Of a stretch of 64,000 nt of DNA, positions 10,154-58,326 are shown one piece after another. The position numbers and the translations under genes were made by a program. Numbering within the stretch: the stretch's first letter is position 1; each line of letters opens with the position of its first letter. Under the pieces are notes generated by a model, which was given only the letters and a program-made list of their open reading frames with translations, ran no database searches and was not told where the DNA came from. Where the stretch lies: assembly GCA_965113315.1 (NCBI GenBank), contig OZ220364.1; one strand, written 5' to 3'. The DNA is from Podarcis vaucheri (lineage: Eukaryota).

Positions 10154-10199
10154 GATGATTATTTCAGAAACTGGAATCCAAACAAGCCTTTTGATCAAG
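10154..10199 (+). CDS. SPOCK1: SPOCK1 (testican-1) internal coding exon, DDYFRNWNPNKPFDQ(A)
   Basis: ttcttccctttag|GATGATTATTTCAGAAACTGGAATCCAAACAAGCCTTTTGATCAAG|gtaaaa. The peptide matches the SPOCK1 N-terminal region as I recall it (SPOCK3 reads DDYFRTWSPGKPFDQ). 46 nt, phase 0 to 1. Confidence 0.96.
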
Positions 10200-22357: not shown

Positions 22358-22613
22358 AGAGCCAGTGTGGTGTAGTGGTTAAGAGCGGTAGTCACGTAAT
22401 CTGGGAAACCGGGTTCGTGTCTCCGCTCCTCCACATGCAGCTGCTGGGTGACCTTGGGCCAGTCACACTTCTGTGAAGTCTCTCAGCCCCACTCACCTCA
22501 CAGAGTGTTTGTTGTGGGGGAGGAAAGGAAAGGAGATTGTTAGCCGCTTTGAGACTCCTGAAGGGGAGTGAAAGGCGGGATATCAAATCCAAACTCTTCT
22601 TCTTCTTCTTCTT
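22358..22613 (+). mobile_element. Young tRNA-derived SINE (Squam3/POM-like), copy A
   Basis: A-box tggtgtagtggttaa, B-box-like gggttcg, (ctt)n tail; four related copies in the window. Confidence 0.9.
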
Positions 22614-23763: not shown

Positions 23764-24019
23764 AGAAGAAGAAGAAGAAGAGTTTGGATTTGATATCCCG
23801 CCTTTCACTCCCCTTCAGGAGTCTCAAAGCGGCTAACATTCTCCTTTCCCTTCCTCCCCCACAACAAACACTCCGTGAGGTGAGTGGGGCTGAGAGACTT
23901 CACAGAAGTGTGACTGGCCCAAGGTCACCCAGCAGCTGCATGTGGAGGAGCGGAGACGCGAACCCGGTTCCCCAGATTACGTGACTACCGCTCTTAACCA
24001 CTACACCACACTGGCTCTC
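23764..24019 (-). mobile_element. Young tRNA-derived SINE, copy B
   Basis: Reverse complement of copy A with about 5 substitutions. Confidence 0.9.
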
Positions 24020-35020: not shown

Positions 35021-35153
35021 CAGGCTTCCTCAACCTCGGCCCTCCAGATGTTTTTGGCCTACAACTCCTATGATCCCTAGCTAGCAGGACCAGTGGTCAG
35101 GGATGGGAATTGTGGTCTCAAAACATCTGGAGGGCCGAGGTTGAGCAAGCCTG
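35021..35153. mobile_element. Young hAT-type MITE
   Basis: Long near-perfect TIRs caggcttcctcaacctcggccctccagatgtttt / aaaacatctggagggccgaggttgagcaagcctg; 8-bp TSD ctgtatat/ctgcatat. Confidence 0.9.
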
Positions 35154-39107: not shown

Positions 39108-40455
39108 GCTGGGAGCCTCAATGGCACCCTTCTGGAGCCTCCACCCAGAGCAAAAAACCTGGGTAGTCCCCCACCCCCAGTGATGGCACCATTTAAAGTC
39201 ATGATATAATGATCCAGCAGACAAACAAAATCTGATCATCTGGCTTTCCCAGGCACTTGACATTCACGCTTGGTAATCAAAGTAAGCAAGAGATGAGTCA
39301 TTGCCCATGTTGTTTTCCAAATAACAAGCGTTCACGAATCCCTGTCTTATGGATGAATGGAAGTGTAACAATGATAATCTTTTTTTGAGAAAAGCATGAG
39401 GCAATATTCAGATTGCAAAGTCACACATATTCCTTCAGAAGGAAACAAAAACTAGAGAAGGTTAATGTTAAATGTAGCTTTCTTGCCCATGCTTAATCAA
39501 CAGACTTAAGACTTCCAGTCTGTATTCTGCCATCTTATTAAAGAGAGAGAAGAGGGGGGATTTCCTAGTTTCATTGCTAGATTATGGGACATTCAGCTTT
39601 TTAACCATTTTACATGTGTAATGGAGGAGAGATATTTCAACTTCCCAAATCTCAAAGCATATAAGAGCATTTACTTTCATCTCAGACTTCATAGTGGTTC
39701 TCCAATTGTGTTATGTATAAACAGTTGTATTGTGTGTGTTAAATTATTACTAGTTTCTTGTGGGTACTATATAAGCACACAGAATATTTCGAATAACAGT
39801 TTTTTAAAAAAAGATTCTTGGTACAATCAGTGTGGGAAATACTCTTGAAGCACCAATGTATTCTTGTGCATACATTGGATTGGGGAGAACATAGCATGGC
39901 ATGGATGCTTATTCTTCAAGCAGGAGATGAAAAAGTGGGAACCACAGATTGAAGGTGCCAACAGAGAGTAGGGTGACAGCAAAAAGGGGACTGAAAATGA
40001 GTGGCATAGGCTGTTTGGTAGAGAGATACAACTATATTAAATTAGACTAGAGCAGGCAGGGAAGGGAGGTCAGAAGCATATGCAATTCTGAGGAGTGAAA
40101 CAATTGATCCATTAGTCATTTGAAATGGAAATTTTAGTTATTATAATTCCAGCTACTGTACATGTAGAATCAGAAGCTGAATGAAGGTTTGTCTCAATTT
40201 TGAAGGAACTAAAACTCACACAGTTCTGAATGTTTATGACACTGCCTTTTCAGGGGAGAAGTTTCCCAACAAAACAAAACTCTTTTCTATTACTTGGGTT
40301 GCACCTATTTCCCCTCTGATCTCCTGTTGTACAGTTGTGAGTGTGGAGCAAGAAACTAATTCCCATGATCAGAGCAGCAGGATATAGATCACACTGGGAT
40401 ATAGATTCCAACGCACATCATGTTCTGCATTGCATTGTTCTCAATAGAATCCATA

Positions 40456-40797
40456 CAGTGGTACCTCGGGTTAAGTACTTAATTCATTCTGGAGGTCTGT
40501 TCTTAACCTGAAACTGTTCTTAACCTGAAGCACCACTTTAGCTAATGGGGCCTCCCACTGCTGCCGCGCCGCCGGAGCACAATTTCTGTTCTCATCCTGA
40601 AGCAAAGTTCTTAATTATACTGTATTGTTTAATTAGTGTTTTTATGGAGCAGTCAAGTAATTTCATTGTCCCCGAAGGGGGCAATGACAATAAAGATATT
40701 ATTATTATTATTAACCCGAGGTACTATTTCTGGGTTAGTGGAGTCTGTAACCTGAAGTGTATGTAACCTGAAGCTTATGTAACCCGAGGTACCACTG
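40456..40797. mobile_element. Tigger/pogo-type MITE interrupted by an insertion
   Basis: TA|cagtggtacctcgggtta ... taacccgaggtaccactg|TA; homologous to the uninterrupted copy at 54093-54333. Confidence 0.9.
40615..40710 (+). mobile_element. Rex1/Babar-like retrotransposon 3' end
   Basis: Stem-loop tcattgtcccc-gaa-gggggcaatga, then caataaag and an (att)n tail; flanked by ttaa duplication; absent from the sister MITE. Confidence 0.7.
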
Positions 40798-43700
40798 TAT
40801 TTGGATTTATTAATTTTATTCATTTCATAAAATTTATATGCTGCTTGATTGTAGAACAAAAACAACAATCCTCAAAGTGAATTACAGGGGAAAAACATGA
40901 TTCATGTTCCTGTTTAAGAAGTGTGGATCTAAGCCCCTTGACAAGGACACATCTTCCCCCTGGATGCCCATGTTTTATAGTTTCACAGTTTTCCAAGAGA
41001 TGCAGAAAATTATCAAAAGGGACTTCTTAGAATGTACACAGAATGCTGCCATTCCATTTCTGGTCAACATTAATTAGAAATCATGTGCCACTCTGAAAAA
41101 TCTGACTTCAAAGCTTTAAAAATATATCTCAGATTTGTATATTTTACAATACGAACCTTAGAGAGCAGTGATATTTCCAAGCATGCCCCATTTTGCTGAC
41201 GAATAGCATTAGGTAGCAATGGCTCTGGTAGAACATTTCAGTTTGCTGCTTGAAGATTTTAAGAAGTAATAGGAATAACAGTGGTTTGTCTTAATCTCTT
41301 TGATTTAATCTGATTCTGTTAAAATATGTTGTGCCATCAGTTGAGAATTATATGAGGAGATGAAATTCCAGTGTAAGGTTTGCAGATAGTAGTGTTACCG
41401 TTGAAACATGAAGGTGACCTTGGTCAAGTAAAAACTGCTGACAGGAGAAAAAAATCCTTGATGTTGACAGTGATCTACAGGAACTCTTATTTAGAAGTTT
41501 TTATTTTTCCTTTTCTTTGGGGTAGCTGAGAGCAGTATTGCGCAAGAAGTAAATGTATTGGAACAGGTAGCCTTGAAATTTTATATAACCATACAAAGAA
41601 AATTAACTGCTCCAAGGGCACTGCAAATTTCAGGTTGGATGTGGAGTTTTTATCCAGTATGGGAGAATGTAAGCAACTCTTTATTGGGTAAAGGCTTGTT
41701 TTAAAAAACAGAAAAAGCTTTAAGGTTCATTCAACTTTTTTATTGTGTAAACATCCTTGTACAAGTATTGTTTTTACTTCAAGTGGATGTTTAATGTTAG
41801 TAGAAATTTGTTCTACTTGTTTGACATAGGAACATGCCTCACATTTGAAAAAAATGGGAGGGGCTTTTGGGCACTGTGACTAATATGATAAGTCAGTGTA
41901 AAGCAGTGATGCAATGTTAGTGTACTACAGCCTCCATTGTCTCTCACCACCAACCATACTAGCTAGGACTGATGGGAGTTGGAGTCCAACAACAACTGTA
42001 GGGCCACAGGTTCTTTACCCCTCATGCTCATTTAATCATTTAAGCGGCAGGAGACAGAAATACAGTTTTCTAGCTATATGCAGTTCATATCAACTACAAC
42101 AACACTCAAGATTATAAAGTTGATAGATCTCCACAGTAAGATGCTAGAAATGTTAGAGGGTGCCACAGTAATGGCATTTCCACCCCAGCCTGTCTCTGAC
42201 AATACAAAATGCTTTGGGGTCTTAAGAACTACTAAATTGGCTCAGTATGACTTGCTAAGAAGATCACCCAACCTAACAAGGACCTAAAATTTTGAGGAGT
42301 GGAAGTAAGCCATTGTTCCTGTCCTTTGCCAGCTAAATGTGGTGTTTTTTTTGGGGGGGGGGACATTCTGCGAGGCAGTAGGAAATCCTAGTGTCTAATC
42401 CTAGTTGGGGTTTTCCCTAGGGTCAGTCAAAATAATGGTGTTTTTTGGAAAACTGAGATATCCAAAGATTTTGCAGTAGTGGGCAGTACTTGATAGTAGC
42501 AGTAGCAGAGTTGAAATCAGATGGTGTCTAACATGTAGCGGTTAGTAGCATCCTACAGCTGCTGGTGCCTTATGTAAAACATGCAGCAGCATTCAGAATT
42601 TGACAGATCTGACAGCTTGATCTCAGCAGACTTTAGTAATATTTATATTGACAAAAACGTGACTTTCAAATTTAGACGGCAAAGTGTGATTCTGAAATTC
42701 AAATGGAAAGGAAAACTTTGTAATCTGAAAAGCTGCTGCATTTTGAAATTTGGCATGTTTGTTTGTTTGTTTCCAAAATGCCCGTAACTGTGGTGGAAGC
42801 ACCAGCAGTCTCACAGTTGGCTTTGTAGCTGGGCTGCGAATTATCGCCTGGAAATTCATTTCTATAATATATACTGTTTTAAGCATTGGCAGCTGTAGCT
42901 ACATTGTCCTGATTACAGTTTGCCACTGTTTATGATTTCTGTAACACCAAGAGCCTGCTGCTCTCTGTGCTGCTGCTTCCTTTCTTGTGTAGCTAGCGTG
43001 TGGACTGCGAAAGGAATCAGCATCTAGAACTGTCAGTTCAGTACAGCACTTTTCAGTAGTATTCACTTAATCAAACCCAGTGAAGTCTGGCTTCAGGAGG
43101 ATGAATATGTCTCTCAAAGTGACAGTGTACTAAAATTCCTTTTCATATCCTGACAGCAGCATACATGATGGAGCAGAATTGAAAGGCACCCCCTGATGTT
43201 CTCTCCACTTCTGTCTTTTTCTTTTCTTTTCTTTTTTTGAATTCATTTAATGTGTTCTGTTCTGATATTATAGCAATCATTAATTTGTACCTGGTGTTGT
43301 TATAAACATCATTTCTCAGTATTCTTTGAAATGCCACTCAGATGAATCACAGAGGTTGCATTTTCTATTAAAGAGTATGTATATTTGCATACACAATATT
43401 GTAGCAAATGCTTTAAATGTGGAAATTGTAATGAGTAATCTTTTAGACCCCTGAATTAAGAGCCTGAAGCCCCAACCCTGAAATATTTACAAACTGAGAT
43501 TGAATCATAACTTTCCTGCTGAAATATTAAAGAGATTGAATCATAATCTTTTCTTCCACCATATAGATTTGCAACAGTCATATTGTGGAAGTTAATCACT
43601 GAAGCCCAAATCTTTAATCAATTCAGATATGTATGTGGATGCCCCATTGCACTGTATTGGGCTCCTCTGTGAATTATTGTTCAGACTCTAGCTCAAGTCC

Positions 43701-51714: not shown

Positions 51715-51961
51715 GAGAGCCAGTGTGGTGTAGTGGTTAAGAGCGGTGGGCTCGTAATCTGGTGAACCGGGTTCGCTTCCCTGCTCCTCCACATGCAGCT
51801 GCTGGGTGACCTTGGGTTGGTCACACTTATCTGAAGTCTCTCAGCCTCACTCACCTCACAGAGTATTTGTTGTGGGGGAGGAAGGGAAAGCAGATTGTTC
51901 GCTGCTTTGATACTCCTTAGGGTACTGATAAAGCGGGATATCATATCCAAACTCTTCTTCT
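51715..51961 (+). mobile_element. tRNA-derived SINE, copy C
   Basis: Same family as copy A, with different diagnostic positions. Confidence 0.9.
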
Positions 51962-52240: not shown

Positions 52241-52804
52241 AACATTATTAGTAGTAGTAGTAGTAGTAGTAGCATCATTGCATGTCCAGGGCTTGAAACA
52301 GCAACAGTACATTAAAAGCATGCATAATAATGACAATCAGCTGAATTTTTTGAAATGAAACCAAATAAATATGAAAATCCAACTCTACCTGGTCAACTTA
52401 ATCATAGGAACCAAAAGTCAGACACCCTCACCACCACTTTAGGAGAAGGCTAAGACTCTGATGTGGCCACATCTGCAGCACATGATAATATCAAAGCTGA
52501 GGGCACACCACCCTTCATTGAAGTGTCCTAGATCTCCTAACCTAGCACACAGTAAGTACGCTCAAGAAGGGTGCTCCTGGCAGAACGGAGATTGTGATGA
52601 GGAATTACTGTTCAGTCTTATGCAGTGTTGAGCAGAGTCAATTGTGATACTAGAAATGTGTATTCAAGTTGGAAGTTATATGGAAACCAATAAGTTCTTA
52701 ATAGCGGGTCAACTTTATGGTGCTCTGTTTTTCTAGGGTTTAGTTGTTCAAACTGTTGACCCAAGAATTGCAGCCGTATTTCTACATATACATATACATA
52801 TTTC

Positions 52805-53070
52805 TGCAGGTTTTGGTGTCTTCGGGTGTCTTCCCGTGTAAGAGTCGGGGTGTCTGTGCGACGTTTCGACGAGGTCTCACTCGTCATCTTCAGGCTGGTG
52901 CTTTCGGCTTCTTGTTACTGTTCCAGTAACAAGAAGCCGAAAGCACCAGCCTGAAGATGACGAGTGAGACCTCGTCGAAACGTCGCACAGACACCCCGAC
53001 TCTTACACGGGAAGACACCCGAAGACACCAAAACCTGCATTCCTGTACCCGTGAAAATCTACGAAAGCAA
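52805..53070. mobile_element. Penelope-like element remnant: inverted pseudo-LTR pair plus 3' tail
   Basis: Arms 52805-52920 and 52924-53039 are exact reverse complements (116 bp, spacer ttc); 31-nt unpaired extension 53040-53070; 28-bp flanking direct repeat (52778-52805, 53095-53122). Confidence 0.85.
52949..52986 (+). ncRNA. Minimal hammerhead ribozyme motif (mirror copy on - at 52858-52895)
   Basis: GC-CUGAAGA-U-GACGAG(UGAGAC)CUCGUC-GAAA-CG-UC-GC: conserved core, 6-bp stem II, palindromic ACGU stem III; stem I only about 2 bp. Confidence 0.6.
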
Positions 53071-53864
53071 ATACATATTTCTACATATACATGCATTTCT
53101 ACATATACATATACATATTTCTTTGTATTTTAAGATTTAAATAAGGAAGTACCGTACTCTGTGCACACACAGTGTAGTATAACTTATACACAAGCATATG
53201 AGCAGGCTGAAAAAGACAACAACAGACAGTTTAACATTCCTGTTTGCTTCTCTAGTGCAGTATTTTAATCCTGCAACTAGATAATTGACATTGGAGAGAG
53301 AGGAGCACACCAATGCTTGAGCTTTCTTCTTTTTATTTGTGTTACTTGACTGTAGGGCCTAGTGGGAACAAATAGGGGCTCATACACACAAAACATGATA
53401 GCACTCTAAAGTGCTAGGCAGGCAGCTACCCAACTAGGGTAGACTTCAATTAGCATGCATTATCCAGGGTTGCAAGAACTCTTCATTTTGGCAAGAGCTC
53501 AGGCATTCATTCTTTGCACTGGGAATTTGCTCATCTCTTTCAGAGACCGTTTAATGAGCTTTATTCAACACAACAATACAGAAAACAACTGTTCATGCTA
53601 GCTCATAAATAGATGGAAAACCAAGATACAACACAACAATTTTTTTGTTTTCATTTCCCCTTAATTATATCCCATTTAACTAAAATTACATCAATAGGTA
53701 GAAAATATTTTGGACGAATGCAGGAAGAAAATATGAATTTAGGTAAAATAAGTATTTAATCCAATTTAGAGAAGCAAACTTTCATGTTATTTATACAGAT
53801 TCCTTTCTACTTATTTTGTCTTTCCCCCCATGTCAATAGCTACAGGGTTAATGTGGTGTAGTTT

Positions 53865-54070
53865 TTAGAATGCCAGGGTAGGCTTGGTGACCCCTGGGTT
53901 CAAATCCCCACTCAGCTTGGAAGTCCATTGAGAAATCTTGAGCAAGTCATTCTCTCTCAGCCAAAACCTCCTTCAGCACAGTAGTTGTGATGATAAAATG
54001 AAGGGGTAGGAGAAGACTCATATAGACCACTTTGAGATTTGTGAAAGAAAGGTGGGATAAAATATATAAA
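53865..54070 (+). mobile_element. Older tRNA-derived SINE
   Basis: tgtggtgtagt...gggttcaaatcccc A/B boxes, aagtcattctctctcagcc core, AT-rich tail. Confidence 0.7.
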
Positions 54071-54092
54071 TAATAAAAATTAAAATAATGTA

Positions 54093-54333
54093 CAGTGGTT
54101 CCTCGAGTTACAAACGCCTCAGGTTACAAACGCTTCAGGTTACAAATGCCACTAACCTGGAAGAGTTACCTCGAGTTGAGAACCTTGCCCCAGAATGAGA
54201 ACGGAAATCGTGTGCCGGTGGTGCAGTGGCAGCAAGAGGCCCTATTAGTGAAAGCACGCCTCTAGTTAAGAACAGTTTCAGGTTAAGAACGGACCTCCGG
54301 AATGAATTAAGTTCATAACTAGAGGTACCACTG
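54093..54333. mobile_element. Tigger/pogo-type MITE
   Basis: TA|cagtggttcctcgagtta ... taactagaggtaccactg|TA; opposite orientation to the copy at 40456. Confidence 0.9.
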
Positions 54334-55154
54334 TATGTTATATAAATACATCCATAATCTAGAAGTCTGAGAAATATATTTTATTTATCAACTTCTTGAG
54401 TAGCCTAAAGTCTTCACGGTACCACATTATTTTTTTATAAGTCCACTATATGATTTCTTTCCAAATTTTATATGGATGATGAGAAAACACCAGTTTTGTA
54501 ATCTAATGAGTGCAGTCATGCCGCAGTACTTTTCTGAAAGATTTCGTTAAGTGATTATAATTCCTTGATCTGCCAATCTGCACATCAAAAGAATCTGCTT
54601 TGTTTAAATACTGTATCTACCAAGATTAATTTAACAGAACAGGTGAGGAAAGATACTCTACAATCTAGTAAATTTTAAATTTGGGGGCCTGTGTTAAAAT
54701 CTCCAACAGCCCCATTTTTATCTAATGCTAGATCAGCAGCTGCTGTGGCAGCAGAATCCCCAGATGAAAGGCAGAAGAGATAAAAGGAAAAAAAGAATGT
54801 TTATTAATTAACTTCAGTTATTTAATGGGCTGCTCTTCCAATTCACTCTATCTAAAATTACTGGCATGTATTATGGTCTGCAGATGGGTTGACTGAGGGT
54901 GTGCATATGGCTGTGAATTTCTAGCACATAGATCATCATTTTGAGCATGTTGAATGACTGGATTCTGGGAATGGAATTGTCCACAGTTGTTTAATACAAA
55001 AAGGAACATAACGTGGTGCATTGCATGAATTGTTGCAATAATTCACATAAAGCTCTGTAAAGATTCACCTATACTTCTTTGTGTATTGGTGATCTGATTT
55101 GAAGAAAAAATACTCCCAAGTAGTAGTCATAGCCATAGTAGTAATATAATGCTT

Positions 55155-58088: not shown

Positions 58089-58326
58089 AGAAGAGTTTGG
58101 ATTTGATATCCCGCTTTATCACTACCCTAAGGAGTCTCAAAGCGGCTAACAATCTCCTTTCCCTTCCTCCCCCACAACAAACTCTGTGAGGTGAGTGAGG
58201 CTGAGAGACTTCAGAGAAGTGTGACTAGCCCAAGGTCACCCAGCAGCTGCATGTGGAGGAGCGGGGACGCGAACCCGGTTCACCAGATTATGAGTCTACC
58301 ACTCTTAACCACTACACCACACTGGC
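58089..58326 (-). mobile_element. tRNA-derived SINE, copy D
   Basis: Reverse complement of the same family; shares diagnostic positions with copy C. Confidence 0.9.

Follow-up and report, generated by a model that had tools for sequence, protein, structure and literature searches.

A recent inverted Penelope-type insertion in a Podarcis vaucheri intron, and what its sister copies suggest about the origin of mirror arms

Insertions that combine an inverted pseudo-LTR (pLTR), a tail and a target-site duplication have been described for Pen2a_Av and Pen2_Av of Adineta vaga (PMC3846280; overview in PMC8557442), and the building of Penelope inverted ends and tails is called undefined in the overview. 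For PAc, the Poseidon element of Anolis carolinensis, the main RT start was measured at +111-118; two adjacent internal RT starts bound the tail, both strands were nicked and extended in vitro, and a dimer was predicted (PMC11167929). EN+ Penelope-like elements (PLEs) are defined by a CCHH motif, and a CX2-5CxxC zinc-finger linker is found in Neptune and Nematis (PMC8557442). Opposite-strand pairs of PLE hammerhead motifs lying 100-700 bp apart have also been described (PMC4209133), and evidence for in vivo cleavage by minimal Penelope hammerheads was lacking in PMC4209133 and PMC11167929. Our literature search, chiefly of open-access papers, returned nothing on twin priming by Penelope elements, on the lacertid family described below, or on insertions that start at a hammerhead cut. 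In twin priming as known from L1, both target strands prime on the RNA, the inverted 5' segment is joined by microhomology, and a target duplication results.

The window analysed here is a 64,000-nt stretch of Podarcis vaucheri (GCA_965113315.1, contig OZ220364.1). An earlier note on its letters had reported a perfect palindrome with a tail, two hammerhead motifs and a flanking direct repeat, and had read it as a very recent Penelope-like insertion in a SPOCK1 intron. The inverted repeat is present once in the window, and the palindrome is as perfect as had been claimed, with arms at 52805-52920 and 52924-53039 of 116 nt each, 100% complementary around the 3-nt spacer TTC; the 31-nt tail was likewise found, at 53040-53070 and on a single side. 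The features of the locus and its nearest exon are listed below, with element positions counted from the A of the ORF ATG (52957) as +1.

10154..10199, plus strand: nearest upstream host exon found, 46 nt, bounded by AG/GT, reading DDYFRNWNPNKPFDQ
52778..53122, no strand: AT-rich (ATAC/ATAT) tandem repeat predating the insertion, present in the empty allele of run X8 with 0 differences
52794..52805, plus strand: target-site duplication, left copy, 12 bp; its last T also pairs with element +83
52805..52920, minus strand: tail-less inverted arm, element +83 to -33
52858..52895, minus strand: minimal hammerhead motif, mirror of the plus-strand one, from pattern and fold
52918..52926, plus strand: junction CTG-TTC-CAG, with a 3-nt CTG overlap of the arms, element -39 to -31
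52918..53039, plus strand: sense arm, element -39 to +83, i.e., the pLTR end and the first 28 ORF codons, with the ATG at 52957
52949..52986, plus strand: minimal type-I hammerhead motif with 2-bp stem I, CUGAAGA, extra U, 6-bp stem II and GAAA-CG-UC
53040..53070, plus strand: Penelope tail, 31 nt, on one side only, element +84 to +114, ORF sequence
53071..53082, plus strand: target-site duplication, right copy, 12 bp, from the empty site in X8

The spacer context CTG-TTC-CAG is the element's own native sequence and not filler, so the sense arm truly begins at 52918 and the arms overlap by CTG. The insert spans 52806-53070 (265 bp), plus a 12-bp target duplication (52794-52805 = 53071-53082), and on the right the element match runs 3 nt on into the duplication (to +117), these 3 nt being shared with the target. 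The palindrome holds 18 CpG in its 235 bp, and its observed/expected ratio of 1.05 vs 0.195 for the window agrees with the description of a CpG-rich structure in CpG-poor surroundings.

The locus was compared with contigs of four public runs, one of which (X1, same species) is possibly the window's own sample. In run X8, which carries another organism label, one contig reads straight through the uninterrupted site; it leaves out 277 letters, with 12 letters that can be placed on either side, and shows 0 differences over 615 flank bases; contigs of runs X3 and X5 likewise cross the site lacking the insert. In X1, the unique flanks break off where the insertion begins and ends, and none of the joints listed is an empty site. 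Since the empty site occurs in a run whose flanks show no differences, the insertion is very recent, as had been supposed. The 28-bp direct repeat (52778-52805 / 53095-53122) and its partial copy do exist, and in this respect the earlier description stands, but they belong neither to the insertion nor to its target-site duplication: the empty site in X8 rules out the repeat as the duplication and makes it older than the insert. Among 140 sister pairs, (AT)n lies on both sides in 123, the window pair being among the 5 scored with neither flank. Duplications of 11-13 bp were read by eye at four other sites (L037, L044, L143 and L152), and one at L081 is inexact.

The insertion sits in the intron after exon 10154-10199, the nearest one found, at a distance of >42 kb; on the same strand, ~206 kb past the window end, lies a SPARC/testican Ca-binding exon. 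From these two exons the host reads as a plus-strand testican-family gene, so that the intronic position given in the earlier note is retained; the name SPOCK1 for this paralogue is provisional, and a Testican-1 cluster appears in the Atlas only at 0.84. The window holds other repeats as well. A ~245-bp repeat, SINE-like by eye and headed by a tRNA-like part, has four copies (22358-22612, 23764-24018, 51715-51961 and 58089-58326), the first two of which are inverted, 98% identical and 1.15 kb apart, a possible further intronic hairpin. Two related MITE-like elements with 37-bp terminal inverted repeats (78%) lie at 54057-54347 and 40452-40837, and an old, imperfect palindrome of 133 bp at 35021-35153 (77% self-complementary, MITE-like) is unrelated to the Penelope family.

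In the 1.6-Gb genome, a 31-nt exact pattern over the hammerhead core has 5,637 + 5,599 = 11,236 matches, with 0 for the reversed control; the stretch from -56 to -31 has 7,485 matches, and the tail running on into the ORF has 501. The window's exact centre occurs in 46 copies genome-wide, most of them with identical two outer ends, and a spacer-less palindrome centre at -42, with 191 copies, is the commonest junction seen. Arm ends in the family fall at +83/84 and +113-117. At locus L038, a whole 2961-bp unit with an ORF of 906 codons lies between two pLTRs, and tandem or partial-tandem 2961-bp units, which form pLTRs, are present in L038, L138 and L155. The L038 ORF encodes an RT domain (RVT_1, E 6.7e-15) and a GIY-YIG domain (E 2e-4) whose 21.9 bits are just below the Pfam cut-off of 22.6; it carries the CCHH motif, with two cysteines between GIY and YIG (GVYEIPCKVCPATYIG) and then two histidines, and no CX2-5CxxC linker was seen by eye upstream of GIY-YIG. 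The protein is 96% identical to a Podarcis muralis protein and 45% to an Anolis carolinensis protein over both domains, and the N-terminus of the latter, compared by eye, agrees but for one residue with the RNA letters printed for PAc in Fig. S1 of PMC11167929. On its domains, the absence of the linker and pairwise similarity to the Anolis protein, the element can be classed as a young, abundant EN+ Penelope/Poseidon-type retrotransposon with intact parents, and the 906-codon RT and GIY-YIG parent and the Anolis/Poseidon similarity bear out the Penelope-like origin first proposed. The special standing given to the window copy has to be given up, since it is one of 46 with that centre and one of thousands of inverted insertions. 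An inverted end, a 31-nt tail and a duplication make up the published Penelope layout, and the window copy is for that reason an ordinary insertion.

Several other loci deserve mention in their own right. A viper protein is 82% identical to the element over 53% of its length, much nearer than the Anolis protein at 45%, and squamate-to-squamate horizontal transfer of the element is a possibility. At L136:1637-7122 (G000:C10:113361136-113366621), a single insertion between two (AT)n tracts holds 17 head-to-tail 294-bp units with 0-1 differences each and a hammerhead in every one, derived from the same family via an internal deletion; the array is preceded by an inverted copy with the identical deletion junction. 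This array is possibly a retrozyme-like derivative, which may have been copied from circular RNA. The window copy itself was rejected as a non-LTR retrozyme, as it is head-to-head, whereas retrozymes need head-to-tail hammerhead units. Head-to-tail arrays of four and five full 2961-bp units lie at G000:C1:24106302-24115214 and C1:127064325-127076197, and of the units at L138, one retains the ORF of 906 codons in full and another has it stopped at 494 codons. A 4.1-kb near-perfect palindrome at L035:1790-5926 has arms reaching -1965 and -1972 that share 8 variants and show no differences; long inverted repeats are thus tolerated in this genome. At L033:6123-8400, an older subfamily (~92% and 80% to the young one), also with inverted arms, is interleaved with young copies, and, as seen there, the (AT)n flank of an existing copy is often the target of a later insertion.

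Each strand of the palindrome carries one hammerhead core of CUGAAGA, U, 6-bp stem II and GAAA-CG-UC, with C3 at 52951 (plus) and 52893 (minus). The plus-strand motif has a palindromic ACGU and a predicted cut after 52984 (+28), and the ORF ATG (52957) lies at the beginning of its stem II. The claim of twin cores, one per strand with a stem I of 2 bp, holds by both pattern and fold. A Rfam search of the palindrome at E<=10 returned no hammerhead family match. A microRNA precursor was also considered and discarded, the Rfam miRNA matches being all below cut-off, symmetric on both strands and hairpin look-alikes. In folding of a single arm, stem II has a probability of 0.97 and stem I of 0.005, vs ~1e-21 for stem II in the full transcript, in line with the suggestion that the hairpin masks the ribozyme; the predicted 116-bp hairpin in the host sense direction has -252.6 kcal/mol. 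As the host pre-mRNA would run through the antisense arm before the sense arm, its ribozyme is expected to be sequestered in the hairpin and inactive. The ribozyme lies within the copied stretch, and the twin hammerheads are thus a by-product.

The places where arms stop are not evenly spread. At 40 core-chosen loci, 31 of 109 arms end between -45 and -31 (2.1 per base vs <=0.33 elsewhere), and this pile-up lies 26-40 nt downstream of a TATA-like TATTTATA box at -71, so placed that the RNA likely starts there. The idea that the CAG near -31 marks the end of an intron was dropped, as the arms retain the upstream sequence. A second stop is found among very short palindromes, of which a gapped pattern recovers 93: in the 50 of these examined, the further-reaching arm ends in 16 cases precisely at +29, the base that directly follows GUC, the next-highest position having 4, and 6 of 18 overlap-free junctions end at +29. 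Microhomology alone was rejected as the cause, given a simple weighted null of <=4.2% vs 32% seen and the 6 of 18 without overlap, and so was a stall at stem II, which would fall near +21; blockage at this base by a bound protein or by a fold could also give such ends. None of the 109 arms in the 40 core-chosen loci ends at +28 to +31, in a set whose core choice excludes most such arms. Indirectly, the position of these ends suggests that the hammerhead likely cleaves now and then in the living animal, and, if true, the class would be genomic evidence of minimal Penelope hammerhead cleavage in the germline. Copies ending at +29 are a small minority, and the window copy's template reached -39 and was thus uncut.

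For the origin of the mirror arms, 140 head-to-head pairs were parsed from 136 loci (38 core-chosen, 17 upstream-motif-chosen and 85 junction-chosen). The set includes a few local duplicates (e.g., in L042 and L076) and leaves out L051 and L101-L105, which repeat other loci, as well as L001-L030 and L136-L138. A tailed arm faces a tail-less one in 124 pairs, with 10 both tailed and 6 neither; in the sets not chosen by junction this one-tail rule holds for 45 of 55 (p 1e-6), vs a ceiling of 50% if the arms were independent. The two arms also agree in their variants: at +31, 33 pairs are C/C, 96 A/A and 2 mixed (50 expected if independent), 18 variable sites yield 22 mixed cases vs 134 expected, and 101 of the 140 pairs are identical across the shared span. 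In the 45 one-tail pairs not chosen by junction, the tail-less arm is longer in 22, the tailed arm in 7, and 16 are within 10 nt (p 0.008). Arm lengths correlate strongly overall (rho 0.62, n=45) and weakly with short pairs removed (rho 0.35, p 0.07, n=27). Of 38 window-type junctions, 19 have the extra CTG-TTC on the tailed arm and 18 have it on the tail-less one. Short arm-end copies are repeated between the arms at L042, L050 and L074, as if the polymerase had slipped while joining.

A tail-less arm that outreaches its partner is no possible copy of the tailed cDNA, and the converse holds as well; the best fit is therefore that priming took place twice, on one template or on two identical ones. 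Our main reading, to which we assign a probability of about 0.7, is that the mirror forms when the start of one element RNA is copied twice at the target, once from each cut strand. In an order of steps deduced from end products alone, the GIY-YIG nuclease would nick both strands of the AT-rich target ~12 nt apart, and the two target 3' ends would prime at internal RNA sites, one at the tail end (+113-117) and one ~32 nt upstream (+84), presumably through 1-3 nt of pairing with AU. Both cDNAs would then extend toward the RNA 5' end, here at ~-39 and probably the transcription start after the TATTTATA box, and their ends would join via the 3-nt CTG/CAG match, the gaps being filled afterwards. 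Against this reading, the agreement of the arms is also expected from two RNAs of one locus or from arm conversion after insertion, the 22 mixed cases exist, and 16 of 140 pairs break the one-tail rule. A more specific version, which we put forward tentatively and at slightly less than even odds, is that a dimeric protein binds a single RNA at two fixed sites separated by 32 nt, that each site is primed from its own target strand, that the tail-less copier leads and the tailed one follows, and that both run off whatever 5' end the RNA has; this end would be the transcription start (-42 to -36) and, in a minority of cases, the hammerhead cut (+29). If true, thousands of near-identical insertions would record the Penelope insertion reaction.

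The published explanation for such inverted junctions is self-priming (PMC3846280), in which a single cDNA (or antisense RNA) would fold back at CTG-GAA-CAG and copy itself, with nuclease trimming leaving one tail, the 'EN-mediated resolution' of PMC8557442. It would account for the shared variants and the similar arm lengths, and the junction can fold with a 3-nt loop; at the window copy itself, where the junction is also a foldable mini-hairpin, fold-back could likewise have produced the arms. Across the family we nevertheless consider it unlikely, as 22 of 29 uneven pairs have a longer tail-less arm, impossible as a copy of the tailed cDNA, a tailed arm cannot derive from a tail-less cDNA, the junction polarity is 19:18, and the commonest junction (-42/-42, 191 copies) has no loop. 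The exact centre common to 46 copies with mostly equal outer ends could instead point to a small non-autonomous element propagated whole from a master palindromic copy. Yet both polarities occur (19:18), family variants combine differently among same-centre copies and do so in both arms, inner ends are continuous from +56 to -2683, and a perfect hairpin RNA makes a poor template, so that this origin is very unlikely and largely refuted. A fold-back error of assembly, which the perfect arms and the want of any single record spanning the palindrome (contigs only) might suggest, is the least credible of all: the tail is one-sided, the 12-bp duplication is backed by an empty site, the same centre recurs at 45 other loci, and in X1, which may be the window's sample, the flanks halt at the insertion edges with no empty-site joint. 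The concern about such an artefact can therefore be set aside.

It is also conceivable that the window copy acts on its host, the hairpin being edited or diced into anti-family small RNAs or altering SPOCK1 splicing or expression. The strength of the hairpin predicted in the host sense direction would favor this, as would siRNAs of transgenic D. melanogaster whose matches lie in inverted stretches of Penelope (PMC3681739). The insert is, however, absent from the relatives' runs X3, X5 and X8, it lies far from the nearest exon found, and it is one of thousands of similar hairpins that need have no special role; we regard an effect as highly improbable, and the copy is most likely neutral for the host. 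By analogy with the Drosophila case, the family taken together could plausibly give rise to small RNA through its inverted copies.

The single window copy is thus of little importance, and it is the family-level counts that bear on the open question of the insertion mechanism. Exact predictions for the existing in vitro system follow from a family this young, whose parents are intact, whose junctions can be read and whose arms are marked by variants. The lizard genome has also received thousands of new long inverted repeats, many presumably intronic, and the family's insertions form a rich set of presence/absence markers.

Compared with L1 twin priming, in which each cDNA represents a different part of the RNA, the arms here copy the same stretch from fixed starts 32 nt apart. 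The lizard insertion resembles Pen2a_Av and Pen2_Av in its head-to-head, 5'-truncated inverted copy, its 31-bp tail at one end, its short target duplication, a pLTR that includes the first codons, a TATA-like box and AT-rich targets, and differs from them in that the window copy is without the ORF body and both arms are ~120 nt. PMC3846280 and PMC8557442 invoke self-priming for the inversion and resolution by the nuclease for the tail, whereas the copy statistics here favor priming from two strands. As in the minimal PLE hammerheads of PMC4209133, the motif has an extra base between 9 and 10.1, a G10.1-C11.1 pair, a 6-bp stem II, a 2-nt palindromic insert in stem III, and a 2-bp stem I as in the D. 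virilis variant; unlike those, the predicted motif has a stem II without a bulge. With regard to PAc, the protein identity of only 45% indicates a separate family. Inverted insertions are not addressed in the covered part of the PAc paper (PMC11167929), and that study found no RNA-seq reads ending at the ribozyme cut, whereas here 16 of 50 short palindromes begin at that point. Shared with PAc are the RT with a C-terminal GIY-YIG, an ORF start at hammerhead stem II with the cut site just after, a tail that two internal RT starts (proposed ones in the lizard) would delimit, and AT-rich targets, and the end of the lizard tail aligns with PAc codons 37-40, the site of the measured RT start of PAc (PMC11167929).
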